Shown in pieces: positions 8,409-51,695 of a stretch of 64,000 nucleotides of DNA. The stretch is from Escherichia coli (GTDB taxonomy: Bacteria; Pseudomonadota; Gammaproteobacteria; Enterobacterales; Enterobacteriaceae). Within the stretch, counting starts at the first letter, position 1, and every line of letters starts with the position of its first letter. The DNA is taken from assembly GCF_024502345.1 (NCBI RefSeq), contig NZ_JALDNN010000001.1; one strand, 5' to 3'. Under the pieces are notes generated by a model that saw only the letters and a program-made list of their open reading frames with translations, was not told the DNA's origin and did not search any database. A program made the position numbers and the translations under genes.

Positions 8409-9011
8409 GTGTTAGCTTTTTGCCGCTCTTCGTTGAAGTCAAAAAAATATTTCATCATTTTACTGGCGCTCGCTGCAATTGCCGGACTGGGTACTCATGC
8501 TGCCTGGAGTAGCAATGGTTTGCCACGTATCGACAATAAAACACTGGCCAGACTGGCACAGCAGCACCCGGTTGTCGTTTTGTTTCGCCATGCTGAACGT
8601 TGCGATCGTTCAACCAATCAATGCTTGTCAGATAAAACAGGTATTACGGTCAAAGGTACCCAGGATGCCCGTGAACTGGGCAACGCTTTTAGCGCTGACA
8701 TCCCTGATTTCGATCTTTATTCCAGTAATACCGTCCGGACCATTCAGTCCGCGACCTGGTTTTCAGCGGGTAAAAAGCTCACGGTAGATAAACGACTTCT
8801 TCAATGCGGTAATGAGATCTATAGTGCAATTAAAGACTTACAAAGCAAAGCACCTGATAAAAATATCGTTATTTTTACCCATAATCATTGCCTGACATAT
8901 ATTGCTAAAGATAAGCGTGATGCGACATTTAAACCTGATTATCTGGATGGTTTAGTCATGCATGTGGAAAAAGGCAAAGTTTATCTGGATGGGGAATTCG
9001 TTAACCACTAA
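8409..9011 (+). CDS. ais: Ais, lipopolysaccharide core heptose(II)-phosphate phosphatase, aluminium-inducible (200 aa, GTG start)
   Basis: Translation from GTG 8409 ([26 protein letters not shown]...) has a signal-like N-terminus and the histidine-phosphatase motif LFRHAER; the longer ATG-initiated ORF 8352..9011 is probably not the real start. Confidence 0.85.
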
Positions 9012-9022
9012 ATTTTCAATCT

Positions 9023-9042
9023 GACAGCCAGTGATGGCTGTC
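9023..9042. terminator. 7-bp perfect stem hairpin (GACAGCC-N6-GGCTGTC) between convergent ais and nudI; candidate bidirectional terminator
   Basis: Inverted repeat seen directly in the 38-bp gap between the two stop codons; no strong T-run. Confidence 0.4.
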
Positions 9043-9049
9043 ATCATTG

Positions 9050-9475
9050 TTAAAGAAGACCTTTCAAACGTAACGTTTTTCGGGTGGCAACATTCAAATC
9101 ATAATGCACCAGATCTTCAGGTTTTACCCACGCGTAGTCCTGAAACTCTTCGTTTATTTTCACTTCTCGGTTGGCAGAAACGCAGTCAAAAATCAGGTAA
9201 ATCATATAAATCTCTTCCTTGCGACCATCTGCATACGTCTTGGTGCGAATATCATCGCTGAAGGTCCACGGCGTGATTTCTGTCAAAAGCAGCTGTTCTC
9301 CCAATTCTTCGCGAATTTCGCGGCGTAGTGCCTCTTCAATTCGTTCGCCGGGCTCCACGCCGCCACCCGAAAGCGCCCATTGACCGGGGAAAACGCCGCG
9401 ATCGTCGGCCATTTTACACAGCAAATAAGCACCATCATTTTGAATCAAAGGGCATACAATAGTCCGTTGTCGCAC
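9050..9475 (-). CDS. nudI: Nudix hydrolase NudI (141 aa, GTG start)
   Basis: Nudix box [23 protein letters not shown]; start assigned to GTG at 9475 ([19 protein letters not shown]...). Confidence 0.88.
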
Positions 9476-9753
9476 AGGGGTATTCCTTATAAATAAAAAG
9501 AAACCATGAGAATACGGTAACTCAGAAATATGTGAAAGTGACAGTAATCTCTTTTGCGATGATAACTGCACTTATTATTATTTTTGTGTGTATCGGTAAG
9601 CTGTGTTTATTTTTTCGGCGTTTAATTATTTAAGAAGTATTTAGTTACAATAAGTGACTAGATCCCTTTTTTCGCTCATTGAATCCTCTGCGCCAGGCAG
9701 TACAATCCCGCAGCTTTGGGAATTTTGATTAATTGCTTGTGGGAAAGGGGATA

Positions 9754-10296
9754 ATGAAAAAAATTGCGCTAGCAGGTCTGGCCGGAATGCTGTTGGTTTC
9801 TGCATCGGTCAATGCAATGAGCATCAGCGGCCAGGCGGGTAAAGAATACACCAATATTGGTGTCGGTTTTGGGACTGAATCGACGGGCCTGGCGTTAAGC
9901 GGTAACTGGACACATAACGACGACGACGGTGACGTCGCTGGCGTGGGGCTGGGGTTGAATCTGCCTCTCGGGCCGTTAATGGCGACCGTTGGCGGAAAAG
10001 GCGTTTACACCAACCCGAATTACGGCGATGAAGGTTATGCCGCAGCGGTAGGAGGTGGTTTGCAGTGGAAAATTGGCAACAGCTTCCGTTTGTTTGGCGA
10101 GTATTACTACTCTCCGGATTCGCTCTCCAGCGGTATTCAAAGTTATGAGGAAGCGAATGCTGGCGCGCGTTACACCATTATGCGTCCAGTCAGTATTGAG
10201 GCGGGTTATCGCTACCTGAATCTGTCGGGTAAAGACGGCAACCGCGACAACGCCGTGGCTGACGGCCCGTATGTTGGGGTTAACGCCAGTTTCTGA
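9754..10296 (+). CDS. yfaZ: outer-membrane beta-barrel protein YfaZ (180 aa)
   Basis: ATG 9754 preceded by AAGGGG; signal peptide MKKIALAGLAGMLLVSASVNA; Gly/Tyr-rich beta-strand composition ending in F. Confidence 0.88.
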   Translation: MKKIALAGLAGMLLVSASVNAMSISGQAGKEYTNIGVGFGTESTGLALSGNWTHNDDDGDVAGVGLGLNLPLGPLMATVGGKGVYTNPNYGDEGYAAAVGGGLQWKIGNSFRLFGEYYYSPDSLSSGIQSYEEANAGARYTIMRPVSIEAGYRYLNLSGKDGNRDNAVADGPYVGVNASF

Positions 10297-10302
10297 TCCC
10301 TT

Positions 10303-10326
10303 CCGGCGCGGCATTCTGCCGCGCCA
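10303..10326 (+). terminator. GC-rich hairpin (GGCGCGGC...GCCGCGCC) downstream of yfaZ
   Basis: Inverted repeat immediately after the yfaZ stop, followed by a moderately T-rich tract. Confidence 0.45.
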
Positions 10327-10395
10327 TTCAGTTTCTTACTACGCCTTATCTCCCTTTGCGTTATAGTGATTCGATAACAAAAGCAGGAGATAACC

Positions 10396-11598
10396 ATGTT
10401 AAAAGTGGAAATGCTATCCACCGGGGATGAAGTGTTACACGGGCAAATCGTTGACACTAACGCTGCCTGGCTGGCCGATTTTTTCTTTCATCAGGGGTTG
10501 CCATTATCTCGCCGCAATACGGTGGGGGATAACCTTGATGACTTAGTCACCATTCTTCGCGAACGTAGTCAGCACGCCGATGTGCTGATCGTTAACGGCG
10601 GGCTGGGGCCGACCAGTGATGATTTAAGCGCACTCGCCGCTGCGACAGCAAAAGGTGAAGGCCTGGTGTTGCATGAAGCCTGGCTCAAAGAGATGGAACG
10701 CTATTTCCACGAACGTGGACGAGTAATAGCACCGAGCAACCGTAAACAAGCGGAGCTGCCTGCCAGTGCTGAATTTATCAATAACCCGGTAGGCACCGCC
10801 TGTGGTTTTGCCGTGCAGCTTAATCGTTGCCTGATGTTCTTTACCCCCGGCGTACCGTCAGAATTTAAGGTGATGGTCGAGCACGAAATCCTGCCGCGCC
10901 TGCGCGAGCGTTTTTCTTTACCACAGCCGCCGGTTTGCCTGCGTTTGACTACCTTTGGTCGTTCGGAAAGCGATCTGGCACAAAGCCTGGACACTCTACA
11001 ACTGCCGCCGGGGGTAACAATGGGCTATCGCTCCTCAATGCCGATCATCGAACTGAAACTCACCGGACCGGCAAGCGAGCAACAGGCGATGGAAAAACTG
11101 TGGCTGGACGTTAAACGTGTTGCCGGACAGAGCGTGATTTTCGAAGGCACCGAAGGACTGCCCGCGCAGATCAGTCGCGAATTGCAAAACCGCCAGTTCA
11201 GCCTGACGTTGAGCGAGCAATTCACCGGTGGTTTATTGGCTTTGCAACTTTCTCGCGCAGGTGCTCCACTGCTGGCGTGTGAAGTGGTTCCTTCACAGGA
11301 GGAAACCCTGGCGCAAACTGCGCACTGGATTACAGAACGGCGGGCCAACCATTTTGCCGGGCTGGCACTGGCTGTTTCGGGTTTCGAGAACGAGCATCTC
11401 AACTTTGCGCTAGCCACGCCAGACGGTACTTTCGCTCTGCGTGTGCGTTTCAGCACTACACGCTATAGCCTGGCTATCCGTCAGGAAGTGTGCGCAATGA
11501 TGGCACTGAATATGCTGCGCCGTTGGTTAAACGGCCAGGACATCGCCAGTGAGCATGGCTGGATTGAGGTTGTTGAGTCCATGACCTTATCCGTCTGA
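10396..11598 (+). CDS. yfaY: CinA-family protein YfaY (400 aa)
   Basis: N-terminal MoCF-biosynthesis/CinA-like domain (MLSTGDEVLHGQIVDTNAAWLA..., LIVNGGLGPTSDD); length and context. Confidence 0.88.
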   Translation: MLKVEMLSTGDEVLHGQIVDTNAAWLADFFFHQGLPLSRRNTVGDNLDDLVTILRERSQHADVLIVNGGLGPTSDDLSALAAATAKGEGLVLHEAWLKEMERYFHERGRVIAPSNRKQAELPASAEFINNPVGTACGFAVQLNRCLMFFTPGVPSEFKVMVEHEILPRLRERFSLPQPPVCLRLTTFGRSESDLAQSLDTLQLPPGVTMGYRSSMPIIELKLTGPASEQQAMEKLWLDVKRVAGQSVIFEGTEGLPAQISRELQNRQFSLTLSEQFTGGLLALQLSRAGAPLLACEVVPSQEETLAQTAHWITERRANHFAGLALAVSGFENEHLNFALATPDGTFALRVRFSTTRYSLAIRQEVCAMMALNMLRRWLNGQDIASEHGWIEVVESMTLSV

Positions 11599-11817
11599 TT
11601 CCGCCACTCTGTGCCGGTTTACTGCACCGGCACATTCCCCCTCCGGCAAAATTTGTCCAACCTGTTGTACTCAATAAGAAAAAATCCGTGCGCTGATTCA
11701 CAAATTTGTGCGTAATTTCTCCAGTCCGTTGGACGAGGAGCGGGATTTGATGCGCTTCACAATTTTACTCCCCCTGAGCAACGAGACTGATTCCAGTATC
11801 TAAGACTGGAGTCCAGT

Positions 11818-12600
11818 ATGTTGGAATCAAGCAAAGTTCCCGCCCTGACACGGGCTATTGATATTCTCAATTTGATTGCCCGCATTGGCCCCTGTAATGC
11901 TGCGACGATCATTGACACATTGGGGATCCCTAAAAGCACGGCCTATTTGCTGCTTAATGAACTCAGGCGTCAGCGTTTTCTTAGCCTTGATCACCAGGAA
12001 AATTTTTGTTTGTGGACCAAGCTGGTGGAGCTTTCCGGTCATGCGTTAAGCAAGATGGATCTCCGGGAACTGGCTCGACCGCGTTTGACGCAACTGATGG
12101 ATACCACCGGGCTGTTATGTCACCTGGGGATTATTGATAACGGCAGCGCTTATTACATTTTGAAAGTGGAGTCATCAGCCACTATCAGCGTGCGTTCACA
12201 TGAAGGAAAAAGCCTTTCGCTTTATCGCTCCGGAATAGGTAAATGCCTGCTTGCCTGGCAACCTGCAACTGTACAGCAAAGTATTATCGAAGGGCTGGTC
12301 TGGGAGCAGGCGACACCCACAACGATTACTCATCCACAGCAACTTCACGAAGAACTGGCGCGTATTCGCCGTCAGGGCTGGAGCTATGACAACGGCGAAG
12401 ATTACGCCGATGTCCGTTGTGTCGCTGCGCCGGTGTTTAACGCCAATAACGAGCTTACCGCTGCGATCTCGGTGGTCGGTACCCGCTTACAAATCAATGA
12501 AGAATACCGTGATTATCTGGCGGGCAAGGCCATTGCCTGCGCCAGGGATATTTCACGTCTGTTGGGATGGAAAAGTCCCTTTGACTTACAAGCCTCATAA
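11818..12600 (+). CDS. rhmR: IclR-family transcriptional regulator RhmR (260 aa)
   Basis: N-terminal HTH ([41 protein letters not shown]) and IclR effector domain; first gene of the rhamnonate cluster. Confidence 0.88.
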
Positions 12601-12614
12601 CAATGGAGAACATC

Positions 12615-13820
12615 ATGACCCTACCAAAAATTAAACAGGTTCGCGCCTGGTTTACTGGCGGTGCGACAGCAGAAAAAGGCGCTGGCGGCGGTGATTATCA
12701 CGACCAGGGGGCGAATCACTGGATAGACGATCATATTGCCACCCCGATGAGTAAATACCGCGATTACGAGCAGTCACGCCAGTCATTTGGCATTAACGTT
12801 CTTGGCACGTTGGTTGTTGAAGTCGAAGCAGAAAACGGCCAGACCGGATTCGCTGTTTCGACAGCCGGTGAAATGGGCTGTTTTATCGTCAAAAAACACC
12901 TTAACCGTTTCATTGAGGGTAAATGTGTCAGTGATATCAAACTGATCCACGATCAAATGCTCAATGCCACCCTGTATTACTCCGGCTCTGGTGGCCTGGT
13001 GATGAATACGATTTCCTGTGTCGATCTGGCTCTGTGGGATCTGTTCGGCAAAGTGGTCGGGCTTCCGGTTTATAAACTTTTAGGCGGCGCTGTTCGTGAT
13101 GAGATTCAGTTCTACGCCACAGGTGCGCGTCCGGATCTGGCAAAAGAGATGGGCTTTATCGGTGGCAAAATGCCGACGCACTGGGGGCCACATGATGGCG
13201 ATGCGGGGATCCGCAAAGATGCCGCTATGGTCGCGGATATGCGTGAAAAATGCGGTGAGGATTTCTGGTTAATGCTCGACTGCTGGATGAGTCAGGACGT
13301 GAACTATGCGACCAAACTGGCCCACGCTTGCGCGCCCTATAACCTGAAATGGATCGAAGAGTGCCTGCCGCCACAGCAGTATGAAGGTTATCGCGAACTG
13401 AAACGCAACGCGCCAGTCGGAATGATGGTCACCAGCGGTGAGCACCACGGCACACTGCAATCTTTTCGTACGCTTTCAGAAACCGGTATCGACATTATGC
13501 AGCCGGATGTTGGCTGGTGCGGTGGCTTAACCACGCTGGTGGAAATTGCCGCAATCGCCAAATCCAGGGGGCAACTGGTGGTGCCGCACGGTTCGTCTGT
13601 TTACTCCCACCATGCGGTGATCACCTTCACCAATACGCCATTCAGCGAATTCCTGATGACCAGTCCGGATTGTTCAACGATGCGTCCGCAGTTTGATCCG
13701 ATTCTGCTTAATGAGCCGGTTCCGGTGAATGGTCGTATTCATAAATCAGTGCTTGATAAACCCGGTTTCGGCGTCGAACTCAATCGTGACTGCAATTTGA
13801 AACGCCCCTACAGCCACTAA
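12615..13820 (+). CDS. rhmD: L-rhamnonate dehydratase RhmD, enolase superfamily (401 aa; ORF also open from ATG 12603)
   Basis: Enolase-superfamily protein; ATG 12615 has a GGAG Shine-Dalgarno 6 nt upstream. Confidence 0.9.
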
Positions 13821-13876
13821 TCACTCCGGGCGTTGCTGTGACAACGGTAACGCCCACATATTCTAAGGAGCTTTTT

Positions 13877-15166
13877 ATGAGCACCGCTTTGCTTGACGCC
13901 GTGGTGAAGAAAAACCGTGTGCGTTTAATTCCGTTTATGTTGGCGCTGTATGTGCTGGCGTTTCTCGACCGTTCGAATATCGGTTTTGCCAAACAGACCT
14001 ACCAGATTGATACCGGGTTGAGTAATGAAGCTTATGCGCTGGGAGCAGGCATTTTCTTTGTGGTATATGCGTTTCTGGGTGTTCCGGCGAATCTTTTGAT
14101 GCGCAAACTGGGGGCCAGAACCTGGATTGGTACGACAACACTGCTGTGGGGATTTCTTTCGGCAGCCATGGCATGGGCCGATACTGAAGCGAAATTTCTG
14201 ATAGTTCGCACTCTGCTTGGTGCTGCGGAGGCCGGATTTTTCCCTGGTATGATTTATCTCACCTCGCAATGGTTTCCGCAGCGTAATCGCGCCAGCATTA
14301 TGGGGCTGTTCTATATGGGCGCACCGCTGGCGTTAACACTGGGATCACCGCTTTCCGGCGCGCTGCTGGAGATGCATGGATTTATGGGGCATCCCGGCTG
14401 GTTCTGGATGTTTGTGATTGAAGGATTGTTGGCAGTCGGCGCTGGGGTATTCACATTCTTTTGGCTTGATGACACACCGGAGCAGGCACGTTTTCTGAGT
14501 AAACAAGAAAAAACGTTGCTTATCAATCAACTGGCAAGTGAAGAACAACAGAAAGTGACTTCTCGGCTGAGCGATGCGCTGCGTAATGGCCGAGTCTGGC
14601 AACTAGCGATTATCTACCTGACCATTCAGGTGGCTGTTTACGGATTAATTTTCTTCCTGCCGACCCAGGTTGCGGCATTGCTGGGGACAAAAGTGGGCTT
14701 TACGGCGTCGGTGGTCACCGCCATTCCGTGGGTTGCGGCCTTGTTTGGGACCTGGCTTATTCCGCGCTATTCCGATAAAACCGGCGAACGGCGTAATGTC
14801 GCAGCGCTGACATTACTGGCGGCGGGCATTGGTATTGGTCTGTCCGGGCTGCTTTCTCCAGTAATGGCGATCGTAGCGCTGTGTGTTGCAGCCATCGGGT
14901 TTATTGCCGTGCAGCCGGTGTTCTGGACGATGCCGACACAACTGCTTTCCGGTACGGCGCTGGCTGCGGGGATTGGTTTTGTAAACCTGTTTGGTGCAGT
15001 GGGCGGGTTTATTGCCCCGATCCTGCGCGTGAAAGCAGAAACGTTATTTGCCAGCGATGCGGCGGGATTACTGACGCTGGCAGCGGTGGCGGTCATCGGT
15101 TCGCTGATTATTTTCACTCTGCGTGTAAATCGCACCGTTGCGCAGACCGACGTGGCACATCATTAA
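13877..15166 (+). CDS. rhmT: MFS transporter RhmT, putative L-rhamnonate transporter (429 aa)
   Basis: ATG 13877 preceded by AAGGAG; 12-TM MFS-like hydrophobic profile. Confidence 0.88.
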
Positions 15167-15183
15167 ATAGGTTAAGGAACACG

Positions 15184-15987
15184 ATGAACACATTATTAAG
15201 CAATCCCTTTAAAGAACGTTTACGCAAGGGCGAAGTGCAAATTGGTCTGTGGTTAAGCTCAACAACTGCCTATATGGCAGAAATTGCCGCCACTTCCGGT
15301 TATGACTGGTTGCTGATTGATGGGGAGCACGCGCCAAACACCATTCAGGATCTTTATCACCAGCTACAGGCGGTAGCCCCCTATGCCAGCCAACCCGTGA
15401 TCCGTCCGGTGGAAGGCAGTAAACCGCTGATTAAACAAGTCCTGGATATTGGCGCGCAAACTCTACTGATCCCGATGGTCGATACTGCCGATCAGGCACG
15501 TCAGGTGGTGTCTGCCACGCGCTATCCTCCCTACGGTGAGCGTGGAGTCGGGGCCAGTGTGGCACGGGCTGCGCGCTGGGGACGCATTGAGAATTACATG
15601 GCGCAAGTTAACGATTCACTTTGTCTGTTGGTGCAGGTGGAAAGTAAAACGGCACTGGATAACCTGGACGAAATCCTCGACGTCGAAGGGATTGATGGCG
15701 TGTTTATTGGACCTGCGGATCTTTCTGCGTCGTTGGGCTACCCGGATAACGCCGGGCACCCGGAAGTGCAGCGAATTATTGAAACCAGCATTCGGCGGAT
15801 CCGTGCTGCGGGTAAAGCGGCTGGTTTTCTGGCTGTGGCTCCTGATATGGCGCAGCAATGCCTGGCGTGGGGAGCGAACTTTGTCGCTGTTGGCGTTGAC
15901 ACGATGCTCTACAGCGATGCCCTGGATCAACGACTGGCGATGTTTAAATCAGGCAAAAATGGGCCACGCATCAAAGGTAGTTATTGA
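15184..15987 (+). CDS. rhmA: 2-keto-3-deoxy-L-rhamnonate aldolase RhmA, HpcH/HpaI family (267 aa)
   Basis: Starts [26 protein letters not shown]...; the six-frame ORF 14881..15987 is an in-frame upstream extension overlapping rhmT and is not taken as the real start. Confidence 0.9.
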
Positions 15988-16027
15988 TATCAAAGGCCCA
16001 TGGGGATCGGCTGTGGGCCTGTGTTAA

Positions 16028-16228
16028 TTAGTGGTTATTCGCTGCCAGATCGGCTTCGCTTAGCTGGGTGGCCGCGAGCACCAGGTCACGATCAAAGCCC
16101 TGTTCCAGCATGCGCAAAGCAATTTTAATGGCTTGTTCATGCATGCCTTCCTGCAAACCTTCTAATTTACCTTCTTGCCAGCCAATTTGATGTCCTTCCT
16201 GCCGTAGCCGTTCAGCATTAGTCATCAA
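16028..16228 (-). CDS. ypaA: YpaA, 66-aa standalone copy of the Rpn C-terminal domain (partial duplicate of the rpnE 3' end)
   Basis: [45 protein letters not shown]... is near-identical to the last ~70 residues of the adjacent 323-aa ORF. Confidence 0.7.
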   Translation of the reverse strand: MMTNAERLRQEGHQIGWQEGKLEGLQEGMHEQAIKIALRMLEQGFDRDLVLAATQLSEADLAANNH

Positions 16229-16237
16229 TCTCTCCTT

Positions 16238-17209
16238 TTAATGACAGTTCGGAATATCAGCATCAGTGAGTTGGGTTGCCGCCAGCACAATCTCACGTTC
16301 AAAGCCCTGCTCCAGCATGCGCAAGGCAATTTTAATGGCTTGCTCATGCATGCCTTCCTGCAAACCTTCTAATTTACCTTTCTGCAGACCCTCCAATTTA
16401 CCTTGCTGCAAACCTTCTAATTTACCTTCCTGCCAACCAATTTGATGTCCTTCCTGCCGTAGCCGTTCAGCAATAGTCATTAATCTCTCCTTTTGTAGTG
16501 GTGAACGTTCGGCAATCTCCTGAATAAAACGGGTGAAACGGGAGGTATCGCCGCATTGCAGCAGATAATTAAACAGTGTTTGTAGCTGGCTGTCATTAGT
16601 GAAGCCTCTAACCAAAAGCGTGGTGATCCTGTCGACCATACCGATTAAATCGCGGTCGCGAATATGCTTTTGAATCAGTTCCAGCAGAGCTATACGCCGA
16701 TGTTGCATGATCTCATCGTCAGGTACGATGGTGATATCCACCAACGGAAAAGCTTCGGTGTACAACTGCCGGGCAAGTTGCGGATCGTCAAACTCATCCA
16801 GCCAGTTGAGTGAGTACGGGTAGGGCGAGGTTTCGCCATGATAAAACAGCAACGGCACCACCAGCTGGACTCTGTCATAGCCTTTGTCCAGGTGACGCTG
16901 CATGGCGGCAGTGGCATAGCGCATTAGCCGAAAAGCCATATTCTTTTCTGCAGAGCTTTGATGTTCAATCACGCAGTAGATATAGCCGTCACCGTCGCTG
17001 GTTTCCACGGACCACAAAACATCCGAGTAGTAAGCGCGTAAACTTTTTTCAATAAAACTAGTGGGTTCCAGGCGTAAGGTTTGCAGGTTGCAAAGCTTGC
17101 GCAGTGGTTCTGGTAAATGTATTTCGAGAAAATCCCGTGCGGTTTCGGGTGTGAACATAAAGGTTTTAAACACCGCATCATGCGGGGAGGAGGTTGTTGA
17201 TTCGGTCAT
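16238..17209 (-). CDS. rpnE: Rpn-family recombination-promoting nuclease / transposase_31-like protein RpnE (YfaD), 323 aa
   Basis: ORF 323 aa ([19 protein letters not shown]...), recognised as YhgA/Rpn family; C-terminus contains the GKLEGLQ repeat. Confidence 0.85.
16361..16432 (-). repeat. three in-frame tandem copies of a 24-bp unit (CAAACCTTCTAATTTACCTTCCTG and variants) in the rpnE 3' region, encoding (Q/K/E)GKLEGLQ x3
   Basis: Seen directly: units at 16361-16384, 16385-16408 and 16409-16432; ypaA carries a single copy (16154-16177). Confidence 0.9.
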
Positions 17210-17402
17210 GGTTGTCCGTCACCTGATATTTATGATGACGCGACATTACGGTTATCCCAGGCCTTTGACATCTGCCAGTTTCAGCCTTTGCGAGACGTTT
17301 TCAGAGGAATTTTCACTGCGTTGCAACGCATACATGGTGCGTGGAATCGCGCTCGCAAAAATGCCCGATAAGCAATGTGCTTACCGGGCATCAAAAGGTC
17401 GG

Positions 17403-21467
<4,065 letters not shown>

Positions 21468-21611
21468 TGTTATCCCTCTGAAGTTCGTTTTTTACCATTT
21501 AGCCATAGTAAAAACATGAATTGTTTGATTTCGCGCATATTCGCTCATAATTCGAAAGTGAAACGTGATTTCATGCGTCATTTTGAACATTTTGTAAATC
21601 TTATTTAATAA

Positions 21612-21631
21612 TGTGTGCGGCAATTCACATT
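21612..21631. promoter_or_regulatory. CRP-binding site TGTGC-GGCAAT-TCACA in the glpA/glpT divergent control region
   Basis: Near-perfect match to the CRP consensus TGTGA-N6-TCACA, about 120 bp upstream of the glpT ATG; the glp regulon is known to be cAMP-CRP dependent. Confidence 0.65.
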
Positions 21632-21739
21632 TAATTTATGAATGTTTTCTTAACATCGCGGCAACTCAAGAAACGGCAGGTTCTCTCACTGAATCAGGCT
21701 GTTAATCATAAATAAGACCACGGGCCACGGAGGCTATCA

Positions 21740-23098
21740 ATGTTGAGTATTTTTAAACCAGCGCCACACAAAGCGCGCTTACCTGCCGCGGAGATCGATC
21801 CGACTTATCGTCGATTGCGCTGGCAAATTTTCCTGGGGATATTCTTTGGCTATGCTGCTTACTATTTGGTTCGTAAGAACTTTGCGCTCGCTATGCCTTA
21901 CCTGGTGGAGCAGGGATTCTCACGCGGTGATTTAGGTTTTGCGCTTTCTGGGATCTCGATCGCCTATGGATTTTCGAAATTCATCATGGGTTCGGTATCG
22001 GATCGCTCGAATCCGCGCGTTTTCCTGCCCGCAGGTTTGATTCTGGCGGCGGCAGTGATGTTGTTTATGGGCTTTGTGCCATGGGCGACGTCGAGCATTG
22101 CGGTAATGTTTGTACTGTTGTTCCTCTGCGGTTGGTTCCAGGGGATGGGGTGGCCGCCGTGTGGTCGTACTATGGTGCACTGGTGGTCGCAGAAAGAACG
22201 TGGCGGCATTGTGTCAGTGTGGAACTGTGCGCACAACGTCGGTGGTGGTATTCCGCCGCTGCTGTTCCTGCTGGGGATGGCCTGGTTCAATGACTGGCAC
22301 GCGGCGCTCTATATGCCCGCTTTCTGCGCCATTCTGGTGGCATTATTCGCCTTTGCGATGATGCGCGATACCCCGCAATCCTGTGGCCTGCCGCCGATCG
22401 AAGAGTACAAAAATGATTATCCGGACGACTATAACGAAAAAGCGGAACAGGAGCTGACTGCGAAGCAAATCTTCATGCAGTACGTGCTGCCGAACAAACT
22501 GCTGTGGTACATCGCCATCGCCAACGTGTTCGTTTATCTGCTGCGTTACGGCATCCTCGACTGGTCACCGACTTATCTGAAAGAGGTTAAGCATTTCGCG
22601 CTGGATAAATCCTCCTGGGCCTACTTCTTCTATGAGTATGCGGGTATTCCGGGCACCCTGCTGTGCGGCTGGATGTCGGATAAAGTCTTCCGTGGCAACC
22701 GTGGGGCAACCGGCGTCTTCTTTATGACACTGGTGACCATCGCGACTATCGTTTACTGGATGAACCCGGCAGGTAACCCAACCGTCGATATGATTTGTAT
22801 GATTGTTATCGGCTTCCTGATCTACGGCCCTGTGATGCTGATCGGTCTGCATGCGCTGGAACTGGCACCGAAAAAAGCGGCAGGAACGGCAGCGGGCTTT
22901 ACCGGTCTGTTTGGTTACCTGGGCGGTTCGGTGGCGGCGAGCGCGATTGTTGGCTACACCGTGGACTTCTTCGGCTGGGATGGCGGCTTTATGGTAATGA
23001 TTGGCGGCAGCATTCTGGCGGTTATCTTGTTGATTGTTGTGATGATTGGCGAAAAACGTCGCCATCAGGAATTACTGCAAAAACGCAACGGAGGCTAA
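21740..23098 (+). CDS. glpT: glycerol-3-phosphate:phosphate antiporter GlpT, MFS (452 aa)
   Basis: ORF 452 aa; MFS organophosphate antiporter sequence ([31 protein letters not shown]...). Confidence 0.96.
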
Positions 23099-23102
23099 TG
23101 GC

Positions 23103-24182: not shown

Positions 24183-24189
24183 TGACACA

Positions 24190-24228
24190 GGCATCCGGGA
24201 AGGCAAAACCTGACCGGATGCCCTTTTC
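24190..24228. terminator. hairpin GGCATCCGG-N15-CCGGATGCC followed by CTTTT, between convergent glpQ and the LysR gene
   Basis: 9-bp perfect inverted repeat directly after the glpQ stop; T-run on the + strand. Confidence 0.5.
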
Positions 24229-25105
24229 ACAATATGCCTTTGACCACCAGGGTTTCCATACACATTTGCAATAAAAACAATGGGCTGCCTTCTACCGGCG
24301 CCTCTTTGACCAGCAATGAAATTTGCCGATAAAACGTCGGCTCCAGCGGGACAGAGCATAACTCACCGGCGACGGCTTTCAGCGTCAGCTCCGGTAACAG
24401 AGCAATTCCTAATCCCTGGCGAATAAAACTTATTGCCGTATCTGGATGGTTAAATTCATATTTAATGACCGGCGTAATATTCTTTTCCTTAAATAACGCC
24501 ATAATGCTTAATTCATAACGCCCCTTACTGATAATGAGCGGTTCTCCCACCAGTTCTTCCACCGATATAGCGTTATTTTTTGCCAGGGGATGAGCATCTG
24601 GCAGCACCACGGTAAATTTATCCTGATATACCGGGACGGAATACATTCCGGTTACCGGAAAATGGACAAAACCGGCATCGATAGTTTCGTTTTGCACCGA
24701 ATCAATAATTTCACTGCTGTTCTCTTCGTAAGGAATGATTTTTATCTGCGGATGATAAGTTTCAAAATAGCGAATAATACCCGGTAAAATACACGCGCAG
24801 GCGCTGGGAAAGCAGCCGATGCGCAGCGTTCTGGTCGGGTTATGTTTTTCCTGCTCGGCAATTTCTTTCACAGCGTTCACTTCACGGGTAATCGCCCGCA
24901 GATGGCTTGCGATGCGTGAGCCGGCGTCAGTCAGCTGCAGTGCTTTTCGCCGCTCGCGGATCAGGATCTCTACGCCAAGCTCTTGCTCCAGGGTGGCAAT
25001 GGCCTGGCTTACGGCGGATTGCGTCATAAACAGGCGCTTACTGGCTTCGGTAAAGCCGCCATAATCCAGTACGGCGAGCAGGGTGTGGATTTGGGTTAGT
25101 GTCAT
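24227..25105 (-). CDS. LysR-family transcriptional regulator (292 aa)
   Basis: N-terminal LysR HTH (MTLTQIHTLLAVLDYGGFTEASKRLFMTQSAVSQAIATLEQELG) plus substrate-binding domain; divergent from an MFS gene. Probably the intact counterpart of the K-12 yfaH remnant (inference). Confidence 0.85.
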   Translation of the reverse strand: MTLTQIHTLLAVLDYGGFTEASKRLFMTQSAVSQAIATLEQELGVEILIRERRKALQLTDAGSRIASHLRAITREVNAVKEIAEQEKHNPTRTLRIGCFPSACACILPGIIRYFETYHPQIKIIPYEENSSEIIDSVQNETIDAGFVHFPVTGMYSVPVYQDKFTVVLPDAHPLAKNNAISVEELVGEPLIISKGRYELSIMALFKEKNITPVIKYEFNHPDTAISFIRQGLGIALLPELTLKAVAGELCSVPLEPTFYRQISLLVKEAPVEGSPLFLLQMCMETLVVKGIL

Positions 25106-25148
25106 TAGTAATATCTAATTAATATGATTAAAACGATTAATTTCTCTT

Positions 25149-25174
25149 ATAGAGTGCATCCATTTATACTCTAT
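25149..25174. promoter_or_regulatory. LysR-type T-N11-A operator candidate: inverted repeat ATAGAGT-N12-ACTCTAT
   Basis: Perfect 7-bp inverted repeat in the 164-bp divergent intergenic region between the LysR gene and the MFS gene. Confidence 0.55.
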
Positions 25175-25269
25175 TTCTATCGAGTAAATCACATTTTGAC
25201 GCACCTGTAGTGGTTCAGCCTGTGATGCTGAGCGGTGTCCTTGTGCGCCATTTGAACGGGTCGTTTAGT

Positions 25270-26460
25270 ATGAAAGAAAAATTATGGACGAAAGATTTTT
25301 GGGCAATCACCATTATTAGCTTTATTATCTTTTTCGTCTTTTATGTGTTGCTGACCTTATTACCTATTTATATCTCCGATCGTCTCCATGCATCCCCTGA
25401 TAAAGCTGGTCTGCTGGTGACATTATTTTTAATTGCGGCGATTGTTATTCGACCCTTTGCCGGGCAATGGGTGGGTAAATATTCGAATAAAACTATTCTG
25501 GTGCTCTCTTCTCTGGCCTTTTTGGTGGTCACTGCGCTGTATCCTTTTTGCCACTCAATAGAATCACTGCTTTTTATTAGGGTGCTTCATGGTATTACCT
25601 TCGGGGTTATCACAACGGTAAAGGGAACGATTTCCGCGCGGCTGATCCCGGCTTCCCGACGTGGGGAGGGCATCAGTTTTTTCTCTTTGGCAATGGGGCT
25701 GGCAATGGTGGTCGGGCCGTGGATTGGCCTGAATATGGCGCGCTGGGAGGCCTTTAATATGGCTTTCTGGTTATGTACTGGCGTTGCGGCGGTGGGGATT
25801 ATCCTGTCGCTGATTATGACCGTGCCGCCGGTTATCAGCCATGCCGATGGTTCAAAGCCAAAGATGGGCTTCGCCGCCATGTTCGATCGCGCGGCATTGC
25901 CGTTTGCCATGGTTACATTCTTTATGACCTTTTCGTATGCCGGGGTTTCTGCCTTTCTGGCGCTTTACGCCCGCGAACTTAATCTGATGTCGGCGGCCAG
26001 TAATTTCCTGCTCTGCTACGCCATCTTCCTGATGATCTGCCGTACCTTCACCGGCAATGTTTGCGACAAAAAAGGCCCGAAATATGTGGTTTACCCCTGC
26101 CTGCTGTTCTTTACGGTTGGGCTGGTGGTTCTCGGCTACACCCAGGGCAGCGTAATGATGGTCGTTTCTGGCGCGTTGATTGGTATCGGGTATGGTTCCG
26201 TGACGCCAGTTTTTCAGACGCAGATTATCAGTTCAGTGGAACCGCATAAAATCGGTGTCGCAAACTCCCTCTTCTTCAATGCGATGGATGCAGGCCTGGC
26301 GCTGGGAGCCTGTGTGATGGGGATGATGGTTGCACATACTGGCTACCGAATGATTTATCTGCTGGGCGCACTATTAGTGGTAGTGGCTGGTGGAGTCTAT
26401 GCGCTGCAAATGAAGGGTAAAAGCGGTGTCGCGCTAGTAGTGGCAAAAGAAATTCATTAA
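25270..26460 (+). CDS. MFS transporter (396 aa), divergently paired with the LysR regulator
   Basis: ATG 25270 (MKEKLWTKDFWAITIISFIIFFVFYVLLTLLPIYI...); multi-TM hydrophobic profile of a major-facilitator transporter; six-frame ORF begins 20 codons upstream. Confidence 0.8.
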   Translation: MKEKLWTKDFWAITIISFIIFFVFYVLLTLLPIYISDRLHASPDKAGLLVTLFLIAAIVIRPFAGQWVGKYSNKTILVLSSLAFLVVTALYPFCHSIESLLFIRVLHGITFGVITTVKGTISARLIPASRRGEGISFFSLAMGLAMVVGPWIGLNMARWEAFNMAFWLCTGVAAVGIILSLIMTVPPVISHADGSKPKMGFAAMFDRAALPFAMVTFFMTFSYAGVSAFLALYARELNLMSAASNFLLCYAIFLMICRTFTGNVCDKKGPKYVVYPCLLFFTVGLVVLGYTQGSVMMVVSGALIGIGYGSVTPVFQTQIISSVEPHKIGVANSLFFNAMDAGLALGACVMGMMVAHTGYRMIYLLGALLVVVAGGVYALQMKGKSGVALVVAKEIH

Positions 26461-35508: not shown

Positions 35509-35509
35509 T

Positions 35510-35640
35510 CGCTGTCTGACCATCACTATTGCCGGATGCGGCGTAAACGCCTTATCTGGCCTACGGAGAGCATTTGTAGGCCTGATAAGACGCGGCAAGC
35601 GTCGCATCAGGCATTGGCGCGGTTGCCGGATGAATCCAAA
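35510..35640. repeat. REP/BIME element between convergent yfaL and ubiG
   Basis: GCCGGATGCGGCGTAAACGCCTTATCTGGCCTAC and GTAGGCCTGATAAGACGCGGCAAGCGTCGCATCAGGC palindromes. Confidence 0.8.
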
Positions 35641-35648
35641 CAACAACC

Positions 35649-36371: not shown

Positions 36372-36517
36372 TGGCACTTCTACTCCGTAATTGGCAAGAC
36401 AAACGAGTATATCAGGCATTGGATGTGAATAAAGCGTATAGGTTTACCTCAAACTGCGCGGCTGTGTTATAATTTGCGACCTTTGAATCCGGGATACAGT
36501 AGAGGGATAGCGGTTAG

Positions 36518-39145: not shown

Positions 39146-39293
39146 TTTTACTTCTTCATGCCAAAAGGGAGCTATCTCCCTTGTTTGAATTGAAAAGTCC
39201 AGGCTGCAAAGTCTGGGCTTTTGTCGTATTAGGGCGCGGTAAAGTTTGGCTGTGTCCGTAAAAAATGGCTGGCTATACACAAGGAATGTGGCA

Positions 39294-46140
<6,847 letters not shown>

Positions 46141-47790
46141 GTGAACTGGCGCAGAATCGTCTGGCTATTGGCGTTGGTTACTCTGCCAACGCTTGCGGAG
46201 GAGACGCCGTTACAACTGGCACTGCGCGGTGCGCAGCACGATCAACTGTATCAGCTGTCGTCATCAGGCGTGACCAAAGCCTCGACATTACCTGACTCGC
46301 TCACCACGCCGTTAGGGAGTTTGTGGAAACTGTATGTTTACGCCTGGCTGGAGGATACCCATCAACCGGAGCAGCCCTACCAGTGTCGCGGAAACTCCCC
46401 GGAAGAGGTTTATTGTTGTCAGGCTGGGGAGAGCATAACGAGCGATACCGCGCTGGTACGTTCCTGTGGGCTCTATTTTGCGCCGCAGCGGTTGCATATT
46501 GGCGCAGATGTGTGGGGGCAATACTGGCAACAGCGTCAGGCACCTGCGTGGTTAGCGTCTCTTACTACGCTGAAGCCAGAAACCTCGGTAACGGTTAAAT
46601 CGCTGCTTGATTCATTAGCGACGTTACCTGCGCAAAACAAAGCTCAGGAAGTCTTACTGGATGTGGTGCTGGACGAGGCGAAAATCGGTGTCGCATCCAT
46701 GCTCGGTAGTCGGGTACGGGTGAAAACCTGGAGCTGGTTTGCCGATGATAAACAGGAAATCCGTCAGGGTGGTTTTGCTGGCTGGTTAACCGATGGTACA
46801 CCGCTGTGGGTTACTGGCAGTGGCACCAGCAAAACGGTACTGACCCGTTATGCGACGGTGCTTAATCGGGTTTTGCCAGTGTCGACGCAAGTTGCCAGTG
46901 GGCAATGTGTAGAGGTGGAGCTGTTTGCCCGCTATCCGCTGAAGAAAATCACAGCGGAAAAGAGTACGACGGCAGTAAAACCCGGCGTACTTAATGGGCG
47001 CTATCATGTGACGTTTACTAATGGTAACCACATTACGTTTGTCAGCCACGGTGAGACGACCTTACTGAGCGAAAAGGGCAAACTGAAATTGCAGTCGCAT
47101 CTCGATCGTGAAGAGTACGTTGCCAGAGTTCTGGATCGCGAGGCGAAAAGTACGCCCCCTGAGGCAGCGAAAGCCATGACCGTGGCGATTCGCACTTTTT
47201 TACAGCAAAACGCCAATCGGGAAGGCGATTGCCTGACCATCCCCGACAGCAGCGCCACGCAGCGTGTTTCTGCTTCGCCAGCGACCACGGGGGCGCGAAC
47301 GATGACCGCCTGGACGCAGGATCTCATCTATGCAGGCGATCCGGTTCATTATCATGGCAGTCGCGCTACCGAAGGGACACTTTCCTGGCGGCATGCCATG
47401 GCCCAGGCGGGGCAGGGAGAGCGTTACGACCAGATACTCGTGTTTGCTTATCCCGACAACAGCCTTAGCCGCTGGGGAGCGCCACGCTCAACCTGTCAGT
47501 TATTACCCAAAGCGAAAGCCTGGCTGGCGAAAAAAATGCCGCAGTGGCGGCGTATATTACAAGGCGAGACGGGGTACAACGAACCAGACGTGTTTGCGGT
47601 CTGTCGTTTAGTCTCAGGTTTCCCCTATACCGATCGGCAGCAGAAACGGCTGTTTATTCGTAACTTCTTTACGCTTCAGGATCGGCTGGATTTAACCCAT
47701 GAGTATCTGCACCTGGCCTTTGATGGTTATCCCACCGGGCTTGATGAGAACTATATCGAAACGCTGACCCGACAATTATTAATGGACTAA
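46141..47790 (+). CDS. yfaQ: YfaQ, DUF2300-like secreted protein (549 aa, GTG start)
   Basis: Starts immediately after the yfaS stop; signal peptide MNWRRIVWLLALVTLPTLAEE. Confidence 0.85.
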   Translation: MNWRRIVWLLALVTLPTLAEETPLQLALRGAQHDQLYQLSSSGVTKASTLPDSLTTPLGSLWKLYVYAWLEDTHQPEQPYQCRGNSPEEVYCCQAGESITSDTALVRSCGLYFAPQRLHIGADVWGQYWQQRQAPAWLASLTTLKPETSVTVKSLLDSLATLPAQNKAQEVLLDVVLDEAKIGVASMLGSRVRVKTWSWFADDKQEIRQGGFAGWLTDGTPLWVTGSGTSKTVLTRYATVLNRVLPVSTQVASGQCVEVELFARYPLKKITAEKSTTAVKPGVLNGRYHVTFTNGNHITFVSHGETTLLSEKGKLKLQSHLDREEYVARVLDREAKSTPPEAAKAMTVAIRTFLQQNANREGDCLTIPDSSATQRVSASPATTGARTMTAWTQDLIYAGDPVHYHGSRATEGTLSWRHAMAQAGQGERYDQILVFAYPDNSLSRWGAPRSTCQLLPKAKAWLAKKMPQWRRILQGETGYNEPDVFAVCRLVSGFPYTDRQQKRLFIRNFFTLQDRLDLTHEYLHLAFDGYPTGLDENYIETLTRQLLMD

Positions 47791-47794
47791 TGCT

Positions 47795-48571
47795 ATGCGA
47801 AAGATTTTTCTTCCGTTGTTACTGGTGGCGCTTTCGCCTGTCGCTCACAGTGAAGGTGTGCAGGAAGTCGAGATTGACGCACCGCTCTCAGGCTGGCATC
47901 CGGCAGAGGGCGAAGATGCCAGTTTTTCACAATCGATCAATTACCCGGCGTCGTCCGTCAATATGGCAGATGATCAAAATATCTCAGCGCAGATCCACGG
48001 CAAAATAAAGAATTATGCTGCGGCGGGTAAAGTTCAGCAGGGCCGGCTGGTGGTCAACGGTGCCAGTATGCCGCAGAGAATTGAATCCGATGGTTCATTT
48101 GCACGCCCTTATATTTTCACTGAAGGCAGCAACAGCGTGCAGGTCATCAGCCCAGATGGGCAAAGCCGACAAAAAATGCAGTTTTACTCAACGCTGGGCG
48201 CTGGAGTGATTCGCGCACGTTTACGGCTGGTTCTCTCGTGGGATACGGACAATACCGACCTCGATCTTCACGTTGTCACGCCCGATGGCGAACACGCCTG
48301 GTACGGTAACACCGTGCTGAAAAACAGTGGTGCACTGGATATGGATGTCACGACGGGGTATGGACCCGAGATTTTCGCCATGCCAGCGCCAGTTCACGGG
48401 CGCTATCAGGTGTATATCAACTACTACGGCGGGCGCAGCGAAACGGAATTAACCACCGCCCAACTGACGCTGATCACCGATGAAGGATCGGTCAATGAGA
48501 AACAGGAAACATTTATTGTACCGATGCGTAATGCTGGCGAGCTGACGCTGGTGAAAAGTTTTGACTGGTGA
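47795..48571 (+). CDS. yfaP: YfaP, DUF2135-like secreted protein (258 aa)
   Basis: ATG 47795, 4 nt after the yfaQ stop; signal peptide MRKIFLPLLLVALSPVAHSEG. Confidence 0.85.
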   Translation: MRKIFLPLLLVALSPVAHSEGVQEVEIDAPLSGWHPAEGEDASFSQSINYPASSVNMADDQNISAQIHGKIKNYAAAGKVQQGRLVVNGASMPQRIESDGSFARPYIFTEGSNSVQVISPDGQSRQKMQFYSTLGAGVIRARLRLVLSWDTDNTDLDLHVVTPDGEHAWYGNTVLKNSGALDMDVTTGYGPEIFAMPAPVHGRYQVYINYYGGRSETELTTAQLTLITDEGSVNEKQETFIVPMRNAGELTLVKSFDW

Positions 48572-48845
48572 TCCATCCCTTCACACAACCTGGCTCTTTC
48601 TTTTTTCAGATAAGACTGCTGGGCGATCTGCCGACGCCAGGATATAACCATTAACAAGCGTCGGCAGATTGGTCATTTCTTATTTTTCGTACTGAGAACT
48701 GTCCATTTACTCCGGCTTTCCTGGTTAAGGCAATGGTTTCTAAGCGATACGCATTATTGCAATGGTGACAGAACATTGCGGTAACACGCTTTTACCGCTA
48801 CCTTAACCACACTCCATCGGTCACCTGAGGCGGAGCTTCGCCCCT

Positions 48846-51695
48846 TTGAAATACCTTGCTTCTTTTCGTACAACCCTGAAAGCCTCGCGCTACATGTTCA
48901 GAGCATTGGCGTTAGTGCTCTGGCTGTTGATTGCTTTTTCATCCGTTTTTTACATCGTTAATGCGTTACATCAGCGAGAATCGGAAATTCGTCAGGAATT
49001 TAATCTGAGTTCCGATCAGGCTCAGCGCTTTATTCAACGCACCTCTGATGTGATGAAAGAGCTGAAGTACATCGCCGAAAATCGCTTATCGGCAGAAAAC
49101 GGTGTGCTTTCCCCGCGTGGACGAGAAACGCAGGCGGATGTGCCTGCGTTTGAACCGCTGTTTGCCGACTCCGATTGTTCAGCAATGAGTAACACCTGGC
49201 GAGGTTCTCTGGAGTCATTGGCGTGGTTTATGCGCTACTGGCGCGATAATTTTTCTGCGGCTTACGATCTCAATCGGGTATTTTTAATCGGCAGCGATAA
49301 CCTCTGCATGGCCAATTTCGGTCTGCGTGATATGCCAGTGGAACGCGATACCGCGTTGAAAGCGTTGCATGAACGCATCAATAAATATCGAAATGCACCA
49401 CAAGATGATAGCGGCAGTAACCTCTACTGGATCAGCGAAGGTCCGCGCCCTGGCGTCGGGTATTTTTACGCGTTGACGCCAGTTTATCTGGCGAACCGGT
49501 TGCAGGCGCTTTTGGGTGTCGAGCAGACCATCCGGATGGAGAATTTTTTCTTACCTGGTACGTTGCCGATGGGGGTTACCATTCTTGATGAAAATGGTCA
49601 TACCCTGATTTCGCTTACCGGACCAGAAAGCAAAATTAAGGGCGATCCTCGCTGGATGCAGGAACGCTCCTGGTTTGGCTATACGGAAGGGTTCCGGGAG
49701 CTGGTGCTGAAGAAAAATCTGCCACCCTCATCGCTAAGCATCGTTTATTCGGTGCCGGTTGATAAGGTGCTGGAACGCATTCGCATGTTGATCCTTAACG
49801 CAATTTTGCTGAATGTGCTTGCCGGAGCTGCATTGTTTACTCTCGCGCGGATGTACGAGCGGCGTATTTTCATTCCGGCGGAAAGCGACGCCCTGCGACT
49901 GGAAGAACATGAGCAGTTCAATCGCAAGATTGTCGCCTCCGCGCCAGTGGGTATCTGCATTTTGCGTACCGCTGATGGCGTCAATATTTTAAGTAACGAA
50001 CTGGCGCATACCTATCTCAATATGCTTACGCATGAGGACCGCCAACGACTGACGCAAATTATCTGTGGGCAGCAGGTCAATTTTGTTGATGTCCTGACCA
50101 GCAACAATACCAATCTGCAAATCAGCTTCGTCCATTCGCGCTATCGTAATGAAAACGTGGCCATTTGTGTGCTGGTGGATGTTTCTTCGCGCGTGAAGAT
50201 GGAAGAGTCGTTGCAGGAGATGGCACAAGCAGCGGAACAGGCGAGCCAGTCAAAATCGATGTTCCTTGCCACCGTCAGTCATGAGCTGCGAACGCCGCTG
50301 TATGGCATTATCGGTAACCTGGATCTGTTGCAAACCAAAGAGTTACCGAAAGGCGTCGATCGTCTGGTGACGGCAATGAACAACTCTTCCAGCCTGTTGT
50401 TGAAAATTATCAGCGATATTCTCGATTTCTCGAAGATTGAATCAGAACAGTTGAAGATCGAACCGCGTGAGTTTTCACCGCGTGAAGTGATGAACCACAT
50501 CACCGCCAACTATTTACCGCTGGTGGTACGCAAGCAGTTAGGCTTGTACTGCTTTATTGAACCGGATGTGCCAGTGGCTTTAAATGGCGACCCGATGCGT
50601 TTACAGCAGGTCATCTCCAACCTGTTGAGTAACGCCATAAAATTCACCGATACCGGCTGTATAGTTTTGCATGTTCGCGCTGATGGCGATTATCTCTCTA
50701 TCCGTGTTCGCGATACCGGCGTGGGGATACCGGCGAAAGAAGTGGTGCGCTTGTTTGATCCCTTCTTCCAGGTCGGAACGGGCGTACAGCGAAACTTCCA
50801 GGGGACCGGTCTGGGTCTGGCGATTTGTGAAAAACTGATCAGCATGATGGACGGCGACATCTCGGTAGATTCAGAACCGGGAATGGGCAGCCAGTTTACC
50901 GTGCGTATTCCGTTGTACGGCGCTCAGTACCCGCAGAAAAAAGGCGTGGAAGGGTTGAGTGGTAAACGCTGCTGGCTGGCGGTCCGCAATGCGTCGCTCT
51001 GTCAGTTCCTGGAAACCAGTTTGCAGCGCAGCGGCATCGTCGTAACAACATACGAAGGGCAGGAACCGACTCCCGAAGATGTGTTAATTACTGACGAGGT
51101 AGTGAGTAAAAAATGGCAGGGTAGAGCGGTAGTGACCTTCTGTCGTCGCCATATTGGTATTCCGCTGGAGAAAGCGCCAGGGGAGTGGGTACACAGTGTG
51201 GCTGCTCCGCATGAGCTACCGGCATTGTTGGCGCGTATTTATTTGATCGAGATGGAGAGCGACGATCCTGCTAACGCTCTGCCGTCGACGGACAAAGCGG
51301 TCAGCGATAATGACGATATGATGATTCTGGTCGTGGATGATCATCCGATTAACCGACGTCTGCTGGCAGATCAGTTGGGATCGTTGGGCTATCAATGTAA
51401 AACCGCGAATGATGGCGTCGATGCGCTTAATGTACTTAGCAAGAATCATATTGATATCGTGCTTAGCGACGTCAACATGCCAAATATGGATGGTTACCGC
51501 TTGACGCAACGCATTCGTCAGTTGGGACTGACGTTGCCGGTAATCGGAGTAACTGCTAATGCGTTGGCTGAAGAGAAGCAGCGGTGTCTGGAGTCCGGTA
51601 TGGACAGCTGCCTGTCGAAGCCGGTAACGCTGGATGTGATAAAACAGACGCTGACGGTATATGCCGAGAGGGTCAGGAAATCGCGGGAATCGTAG
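48846..51695 (+). CDS. rcsC: hybrid sensor histidine kinase RcsC (949 aa, TTG start)
   Basis: HisKA H-box SHELRTPLYGI, HATPase domain and C-terminal receiver (LVVDDHPINRRL...DVNMPNMDG). Confidence 0.96.
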   Translation: MKYLASFRTTLKASRYMFRALALVLWLLIAFSSVFYIVNALHQRESEIRQEFNLSSDQAQRFIQRTSDVMKELKYIAENRLSAENGVLSPRGRETQADVPAFEPLFADSDCSAMSNTWRGSLESLAWFMRYWRDNFSAAYDLNRVFLIGSDNLCMANFGLRDMPVERDTALKALHERINKYRNAPQDDSGSNLYWISEGPRPGVGYFYALTPVYLANRLQALLGVEQTIRMENFFLPGTLPMGVTILDENGHTLISLTGPESKIKGDPRWMQERSWFGYTEGFRELVLKKNLPPSSLSIVYSVPVDKVLERIRMLILNAILLNVLAGAALFTLARMYERRIFIPAESDALRLEEHEQFNRKIVASAPVGICILRTADGVNILSNELAHTYLNMLTHEDRQRLTQIICGQQVNFVDVLTSNNTNLQISFVHSRYRNENVAICVLVDVSSRVKMEESLQEMAQAAEQASQSKSMFLATVSHELRTPLYGIIGNLDLLQTKELPKGVDRLVTAMNNSSSLLLKIISDILDFSKIESEQLKIEPREFSPREVMNHITANYLPLVVRKQLGLYCFIEPDVPVALNGDPMRLQQVISNLLSNAIKFTDTGCIVLHVRADGDYLSIRVRDTGVGIPAKEVVRLFDPFFQVGTGVQRNFQGTGLGLAICEKLISMMDGDISVDSEPGMGSQFTVRIPLYGAQYPQKKGVEGLSGKRCWLAVRNASLCQFLETSLQRSGIVVTTYEGQEPTPEDVLITDEVVSKKWQGRAVVTFCRRHIGIPLEKAPGEWVHSVAAPHELPALLARIYLIEMESDDPANALPSTDKAVSDNDDMMILVVDDHPINRRLLADQLGSLGYQCKTANDGVDALNVLSKNHIDIVLSDVNMPNMDGYRLTQRIRQLGLTLPVIGVTANALAEEKQRCLESGMDSCLSKPVTLDVIKQTLTVYAERVRKSRES

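Follow-up and report, generated by a model that had tools for sequence, protein, structure and literature searches.

Near-cognate start codons of ais, nudI, yfaQ and rcsC in a 64,000-nucleotide stretch of the Escherichia coli chromosome

In Escherichia coli, AUG, GUG and UUG serve as start codons in approximately 83, 14 and 3% of genes, respectively (10.1101/063800); rpsT (TTG) and cra (GTG) are examples listed in an N-terminomics table (PMC13245402). In canonical GUG/UUG initiation, the near-cognate codon is read by formylmethionyl initiator tRNA (fMet-tRNA), a Shine-Dalgarno (SD) element lies 5-10 nucleotides (nt) upstream, and the protein begins with Met. It has been reported that the output of GUG and UUG reporters is 10-100% of that of AUG (10.1101/063800), and that genome-wide selection generally favours AUG starts (PMC5622118). 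A precedent for correcting such a start is the 2014 re-annotation of the K-12 genome (U00096.2 to U00096.3), which replaced the ATG start of rcsC by a TTG located 48 nt upstream (PMC4909307). Here, we analyzed a 64,000-nt stretch of an E. coli chromosome (hereafter, the window), in which an earlier reading of the DNA letters without database searches (the sequence-only reading) had assigned GTG starts to ais, nudI and yfaQ and a TTG start to rcsC. K-12 MG1655 was used as the curated comparison genome.

All four codons were found where they had been placed, and all are annotated starts. Over its whole length, the window shares 99.95% identity with E. coli O125ac:H10 strain C 236-04A (NZ_CP109924.1, 1645766-1709765), from which it differs by 28 substitutions and by 3 indel bases at window positions 24937 and 39814; coordinates were corrected for these 3 bases when the window was compared with annotation by the Prokaryotic Genome Annotation Pipeline (PGAP). 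The start codons coincided with PGAP coding sequence (CDS) starts in RefSeq in 4/4 cases. Curated lengths in K-12 MG1655 also agreed (ais, 603 nt; nudI, 426 nt; yfaQ, 1650 nt; rcsC, 2850 nt), and in that genome the start codons of the four genes are unchanged and their contexts nearly identical. The original case for these starts, built on protein N-termini together with the spacing of the genes, was borne out by curated annotation, orthologs, domain boundaries and pairing with the anti-SD sequence.

Each of the four codons is in frame with, and forms the 5' end of, a conserved coding region. GTG 8409-8411 is followed by TTA GCT TTT TGC in the ais frame, giving (M)LAFC…; GTG 9475-9473 on the minus strand is followed by CGA CAA CGG ACT in the nudI frame, giving (M)RQRT…; and TTG 48846-48848 is followed by AAA TAC CTT GCT, giving (M)KYLA…, in the rcsC open reading frame (ORF) that ends at 51695. 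For all four genes the homologous position in orthologs is a start codon, which either interchanges with ATG or is kept together with upstream in-frame stops. We consider it very probable that ais, nudI, yfaQ and rcsC represent ordinary bacterial initiation at near-cognate start codons. Nothing of substance distinguishes them from canonical GUG/UUG initiation, and the starts are already annotated in K-12 and RefSeq. All four are thus known, and that of rcsC has been confirmed experimentally in publications. Coordinates are given in Table 1.

Table 1. Genes, SD elements and rejected starts in the window, with the energy of pairing to the anti-SD sequence at the corresponding start
Feature	Position	Strand	Anti-SD energy (kcal/mol)	Remarks
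ais CDS, 200 aa	8409..9011	+		GTG 8409-8411; PGAP and curated K-12; 14/14 orthologs
ais SD AGGTGGAG	8396..8403	+	-7.1	its GGAG 5 nt before GTG
Rejected in-frame ATG of ais	8352..8354	+	-1.1	would give 219-aa Ais; no SD; TAG adjoins ATG in K-12
nudI CDS, 141 aa	9050..9475	-		GTG at plus-strand 9475-9473; PGAP and K-12
nudI SD TAAGGA	9484..9489	-	-6.2	8 nt before GTG
yfaS-like alpha-2-macroglobulin gene	41536..46140	+	-5.5	probable ATG start; overlaps yfaT by 67 nt
yfaQ SD AGGTGA (46130-46135) and yfaS stop TAA (46138-46140)	46130..46140	+	-10.0	SD within yfaS 3' end
yfaQ CDS, 549 aa	46141..47790	+		GTG 46141-46143; PGAP and K-12; N-terminus MNWRRIVWLLALVTLPTLA/EE
rcsC SD-like element GAGGCGGAG	48827..48835	+	-7.7	GGAG 10 nt before TTG
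rcsC CDS, 949 aa	48846..51695	+		TTG 48846-48848; PGAP and K-12; N-terminus MKYLASFRTTLKASRY…
Rejected ATG, rcsC codon 17 (933 aa)	48894..48896	+	-0.9	2006 K-12 annotation

The spacing of ribosome-binding sites had been suggested as a check of the four starts, and it supported them. We computed anti-SD duplex energies for the proposed starts and for nearby in-frame candidates. An SD element was present 5-10 nt upstream of each proposed start, and pairing was best there (Table 1); energies at the rival upstream or first-ATG candidates ranged from -1.7 to +1.3 kcal/mol. By the canonical mechanism, the SD element would position the 30S subunit, initiator fMet-tRNA would pair with GUG or UUG with a mismatch at the first position, and the protein would start with Met and not with Val or Leu, as a peptide shows directly for RcsC. 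Initiation would be expected to be somewhat weaker than at AUG. The predicted products are a 200-aa exported phosphatase precursor (ais, GTG 8409), a 141-aa Nudix enzyme (nudI, GTG 9475) and a 949-aa sensor kinase (rcsC, TTG 48846). For ais, nudI and yfaQ we infer that these starts are used in vivo, and near-cognate codons may additionally have some role in tuning expression.

The start of rcsC at TTG is settled experimentally in K-12. Ribosome profiling or N-terminal peptides had been named as a further check, and published K-12 data confirm this codon. Tetracycline-inhibited ribosome profiling (TetRP) placed the start at the TTG, which lies 48 nt before the start annotated in 2006 and agrees with the 2014 re-annotation (PMC4909307). 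In addition, MKYLASFR (residues 1-8 of 949) appears as an N-terminal peptide in row 477 of the TRAINSPOTTER Table S1, an N-terminomics list of N-termini indicative of initiation, and the rcsC entry is a database translation initiation site with TTG that has Ribo-RET (BL21) and elongation-profile support (PMC13245402). The 60-nt context printed in that table is the same as the window sequence. Although the window comes from a strain other than K-12, the 100 nt around the rcsC start are identical in the two.

Several points may be held against the proposed starts. Only rcsC was present in the TetRP and TRAINSPOTTER tables searched, and ais, nudI and yfaQ were not found there, which is probably due to their poor expression in laboratory media; none of the four genes was found in the supplements of the ribosome-signature paper. 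The signal peptides of Ais, YfaQ and YfaS were assigned by eye and not by a dedicated predictor. In the region between arnB and ais, a promoter scan gave 2 sites, compared with 1.1 expected by chance, and did not place the ais transcription start. Finally, ais alone among the four has a competing upstream in-frame ATG (8352, 19 codons upstream), and since the frame is open in the window, minor initiation might occur there in this strain.

It is conceivable that ais starts at this ATG in the window strain, in which case Ais would have 219 residues and the GTG would be an internal Val codon. The exact 60-mer of the window-type allele (ATG-TCG) was found in 1629 complete E. coli genomes. However, K-12 has ATG-TAG at this site because of a single-nucleotide polymorphism (SNP) at 8356, and the K-12-type 60-mer was found in 1271 complete genomes. 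Both counts are lower bounds because exact 60-mers were used, with approximately 2500 genomes carrying other nearby SNPs left unclassified; the 4-kb ais region itself was matched in 5421 of 5426 complete E. coli genomes. Accordingly, the extension is a polymorphic accident and does not represent a conserved coding region. ATG 8352 also has no SD (-1.1 kcal/mol, compared with -7.1 kcal/mol at GTG 8409). We therefore regard initiation of ais at ATG 8352 as improbable.

Orthologs point in the same direction. We examined loci in which ais is syntenic with nudI (n=14), which came from Escherichia species, Citrobacter and Salmonella arizonae/diarizonae, and the homologous codon was GTG in all of them. 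In-frame stops occur 1-6 codons upstream of this GTG in 8 of the 14, including Salmonella, Citrobacter and one Escherichia lineage. In most orthologs the GTG is preceded by a GGTGGAG-type motif; variants also occur, for example TGAGAGG in Salmonella. When read from the GTG, the N-terminus of Ais looks like a signal peptide, with basic residues, a hydrophobic core and the boundary THA/A (then /AW). The extension from ATG 8352 would set a second hydrophobic stretch before this normal signal peptide.

For rcsC, the alternative is the first in-frame ATG of the gene, 48894, which was also its historical annotated start (PMC4909307) and would give a 933-aa protein, either alone or in addition to the TTG product. 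The TetRP, Ribo-RET and peptide data described above place initiation at the TTG and not at this ATG, and largely refute it. ATG 48894 has no SD (-0.9 kcal/mol), and codon 17 is Leu (TTA, CTG, CTT or CTA) in Salmonella, Klebsiella-like organisms, Erwinia and most metagenomic lineages. Furthermore, no part of the N-terminal region of RcsC is more conserved in Enterobacterales than the 16 residues upstream of this codon, which were omitted before 2014 (MKYL[AV]SF[RH]TTL[KR][VI]SRY). A start at ATG 48894, whether sole or shared, is improbable.

Conservation of the rcsC TTG itself was assessed in two ways. A protein search with the N-terminus of RcsC gave mostly fragments, which were used only as handles to fetch DNA. 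TTG AAA TAY was present at the homologous position in 6/6 orthologs, which ranged from Salmonella (86% identity) to an Erwinia-like sequence (approximately 49%); three of the six have in-frame stops at -7, and in one the gene caller had picked a downstream ATG. A metagenome collection was also scanned, with a degenerate DNA pattern of the conserved N-terminal motif. No ATG or GTG forms of the pattern were found in this collection, and the TTG form occurred in at least 120 contigs. Among the TTG matches listed, there were 73 usable loci with 42 distinct 48-mers, which fell into 22 clusters (85% ungapped identity over 200 residues). Variation at third codon positions started exactly at the TTG among the matches listed, and the upstream leader showed no conservation. 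Such a scan finds only orthologs that keep the N-terminal motif, and its result is subject to this ascertainment bias.

The SD-like element of rcsC is conserved in Salmonella and not in more distant orthologs. Within the leader (48820-48845), the GAGGCGGAG segment of E. coli and Salmonella holds GGA motifs that also serve as SD. A literature search for rcsC and TTG yielded only the mention of a putative CsrA site, which in Salmonella lies upstream of the start of rcsC.

The earliest possible start in the open frame of nudI is GTG 9571 (173 aa), and the first ATG of this frame is ATG 9412 (120 aa). Both are very improbable as starts. We scanned one genome per species and obtained 80 orthologous loci from 80 species, in which the codon homologous to 9475 was ATG in 69, GTG in 10 and TTG in 1; many of the loci with ATG exactly at this codon have stops 2-10 codons upstream, and in several genera in-frame stops are as near as 2-4 codons. 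The N-terminus MRQR(T/I)IVCP is conserved in these orthologs, and an SD-like motif of AAGGA/GGAG type recurs upstream. No SD is present at GTG 9571 (+1.3 kcal/mol). ATG 9412 has an anti-SD energy of -1.7 kcal/mol and would delete approximately 20 residues of the NUDIX domain. In the 173-aa maximal ORF, the Pfam NUDIX domain extends over residues 34-168 and GTG 9475 corresponds to residue 33; in NudI as annotated, the domain thus starts at residue 2. Crystal constructs of NudI orthologs (3OGA, 3N77 and 6DT3) likewise start, after tags, at MRQRTIV. A gene-specific literature search on the nudI/yfaO start returned nothing relevant.

For yfaQ, no upstream extension is possible: the GTG directly follows an in-frame stop, TAA 46138-46140, which is also the stop of yfaS. 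The first in-frame ATG is codon 187, within the first DUF2300 domain (residues 84-200). YfaQ homologs from Pseudomonas and other genera, 539-552 residues long, align over 97-100% of the query. The homologous start codon was ATG in three of five orthologous operons, TTG in one and GTG in one, and it was located 0-3 nt past the stop of the alpha-2-macroglobulin gene in 5/5. A signal-peptide-like sequence ending in …A(T/A)AEE follows the start in these orthologs. The SD of yfaQ, 5 nt upstream of the GTG, has the strongest anti-SD pairing of the four genes.

The junction between yfaS and yfaQ resembles known cases of translational coupling at stop-start junctions: the yfaS TAA abuts the yfaQ GTG, the SD is located within yfaS, and the tight spacing is retained in orthologs (5/5). 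Judged by junction geometry alone, yfaQ is probably translationally coupled to yfaS.

Non-ATG starts are not unusually frequent in this part of the chromosome. The 46 annotated CDSs in the window start with ATG (41), GTG (4) and TTG (1). Given the genome-wide rate of 17%, 7.8 non-ATG starts would be expected among 46 CDSs, and binomial probabilities were P(X>=4)=0.97 and P(X<=4)=0.09; the observed 4-5/46 (9-11%) is at or slightly below the genome-wide rate. All four genes lie within 43 kb, but it is extremely improbable that their starts constitute a meaningful cluster, locally enriched and under shared regulation: the base-rate test rejects enrichment, and the genes belong to unrelated operons or transcription units on both strands.

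The range of 4-5 reflects a fifth annotated non-ATG start, beyond the four proposed earlier. In the closest RefSeq record, PGAP assigned GTG 41626 to a yfaS-like gene. This codon was rejected as the real start: it has no SD (-2.2 kcal/mol) and lies in the middle of an evident signal peptide, after which (…GLANA) the mature protein would begin with DDSLPSS…. ATG 41536 fits better, with AAGGA 6 nt upstream, and the curated length of yfaS in K-12 (4605 nt) corresponds to it. Four of the five yfaS orthologs fetched, one of them from a Metapseudomonas, retain the ATG pair 41521/41536; in the ortholog from Superficieibacter, no ATG, GTG or TTG occurs between this pair and codon 80. The same overlap of yfaT and yfaS was called in 3/5 fetched orthologous operons, again including a Metapseudomonas. 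Thus, GTG 41626 is probably a PGAP mis-call that removes most of the YfaS signal peptide. If so, the real number of non-ATG starts in the window is most likely four, all of which were in the sequence-only reading. The check therefore probably revealed the opposite error in the current RefSeq record, a spurious GTG start.

The practical importance of these starts is small beyond annotation hygiene, although correct starts decide the export signals of Ais, YfaQ and YfaS and the complete domains of NudI and YfaQ. It had been proposed that a caller restricted to ATG would mis-size or miss the four genes. Such a caller would indeed mis-size all of them (ais, +19 aa; nudI, -21 aa; yfaQ, -186 aa; rcsC, -16 aa), but would miss none. 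A related proposal, that non-ATG starts lie behind longer or shifted ORFs in an ORF list, held in part: a program listing the longest ORFs and allowing GTG and TTG makes ais (219 aa) and nudI (173 aa) too long and sizes yfaQ and rcsC correctly. Wrong sizes for these genes would be expected from pipelines that are restricted to ATG and from those that choose the longest ORF in every case.

A mildly new aspect of our analysis is that the TTG of rcsC appears to be invariant across diverged Enterobacterales, and the GTG of ais across 14 orthologs. The rcsC TTG was present in every ortholog sampled, from E. coli to Erwinia-like sequences with an N-terminal domain approximately 50% identical, whereas the leader, including the SD, diverges. 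Given that selection generally favours AUG (PMC5622118), this invariance suggests that weak initiation may be required. One could thus speculate that the TTG is held by selection and not by inertia, with weak or factor-sensitive initiation being functionally required and keeping RcsC scarce relative to RcsD and RcsB; we consider this possible but do not favour it. It is the only biologically suggestive by-product of the analysis, hinting at selection on RcsC dosage.

The ais gene suggests a smaller version of the same pattern. In the same 14 genomes, ais always has GTG, and the adjacent nudI switches between ATG (6 genomes) and GTG (8 genomes), which suggests that the start codons of these two neighbours may be under different constraints. 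When set against the general preference for AUG, the invariant rcsC TTG and ais GTG are compatible with selection for weak initiation. These statements on invariance are plain counts over modest samples and include the ascertainment bias of the rcsC pattern scan.

The order of genes in the window is menE, pmrD, arnFETDACB, ais, nudI, yfaZYX, rhmD … glp … nrdAB … yfaL, ubiG, gyrA, yfaA-T-S-Q-P, rcsC, rcsBD, ompC … mqo. Upstream of ais, on the minus strand, PGAP starts arnB at ATG 8101 (379 aa), and the curated K-12 start is an ATG six codons upstream (385 aa; 8101-8119). Since both candidates are ATG, the finding on non-ATG starts is unaffected. Next to rcsC, the atoSC-atoDAEB operon, which occupies approximately 7.4 kb of the rcsC-yfaP interval in K-12, is absent from the window, where the end of yfaP and the rcsC leader lie only approximately 150 nt apart (48573-48722), and this short segment has no match in K-12.

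Several other differences from the two comparison genomes were observed. The region 24227-26460 contains a gene for a LysR-family regulator and a divergent gene for a major facilitator superfamily transporter, where only a yfaH pseudogene remnant is left in K-12; no K-12 match was found for 24466-26354. In the window the LysR gene has an intact frame, and a difference of 2 bp at 24937 shifts this frame in NZ_CP109924.1. At 39814, within yfaA, the window carries one additional A relative to NZ_CP109924.1, and yfaA is intact in the window and annotated as frameshifted in that record. This difference could be a homopolymer sequencing error in either sequence or a real polymorphism. In addition, Rfam searches detected naRNA4 repeats derived from repetitive extragenic palindromic elements, with two copies directly after the rcsC stop (51695-51885) and three after mqo (63664-63972), and the antisense RNA MicF on the minus strand upstream of ompC (55546-55639), all of which are expected features of E. 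coli.

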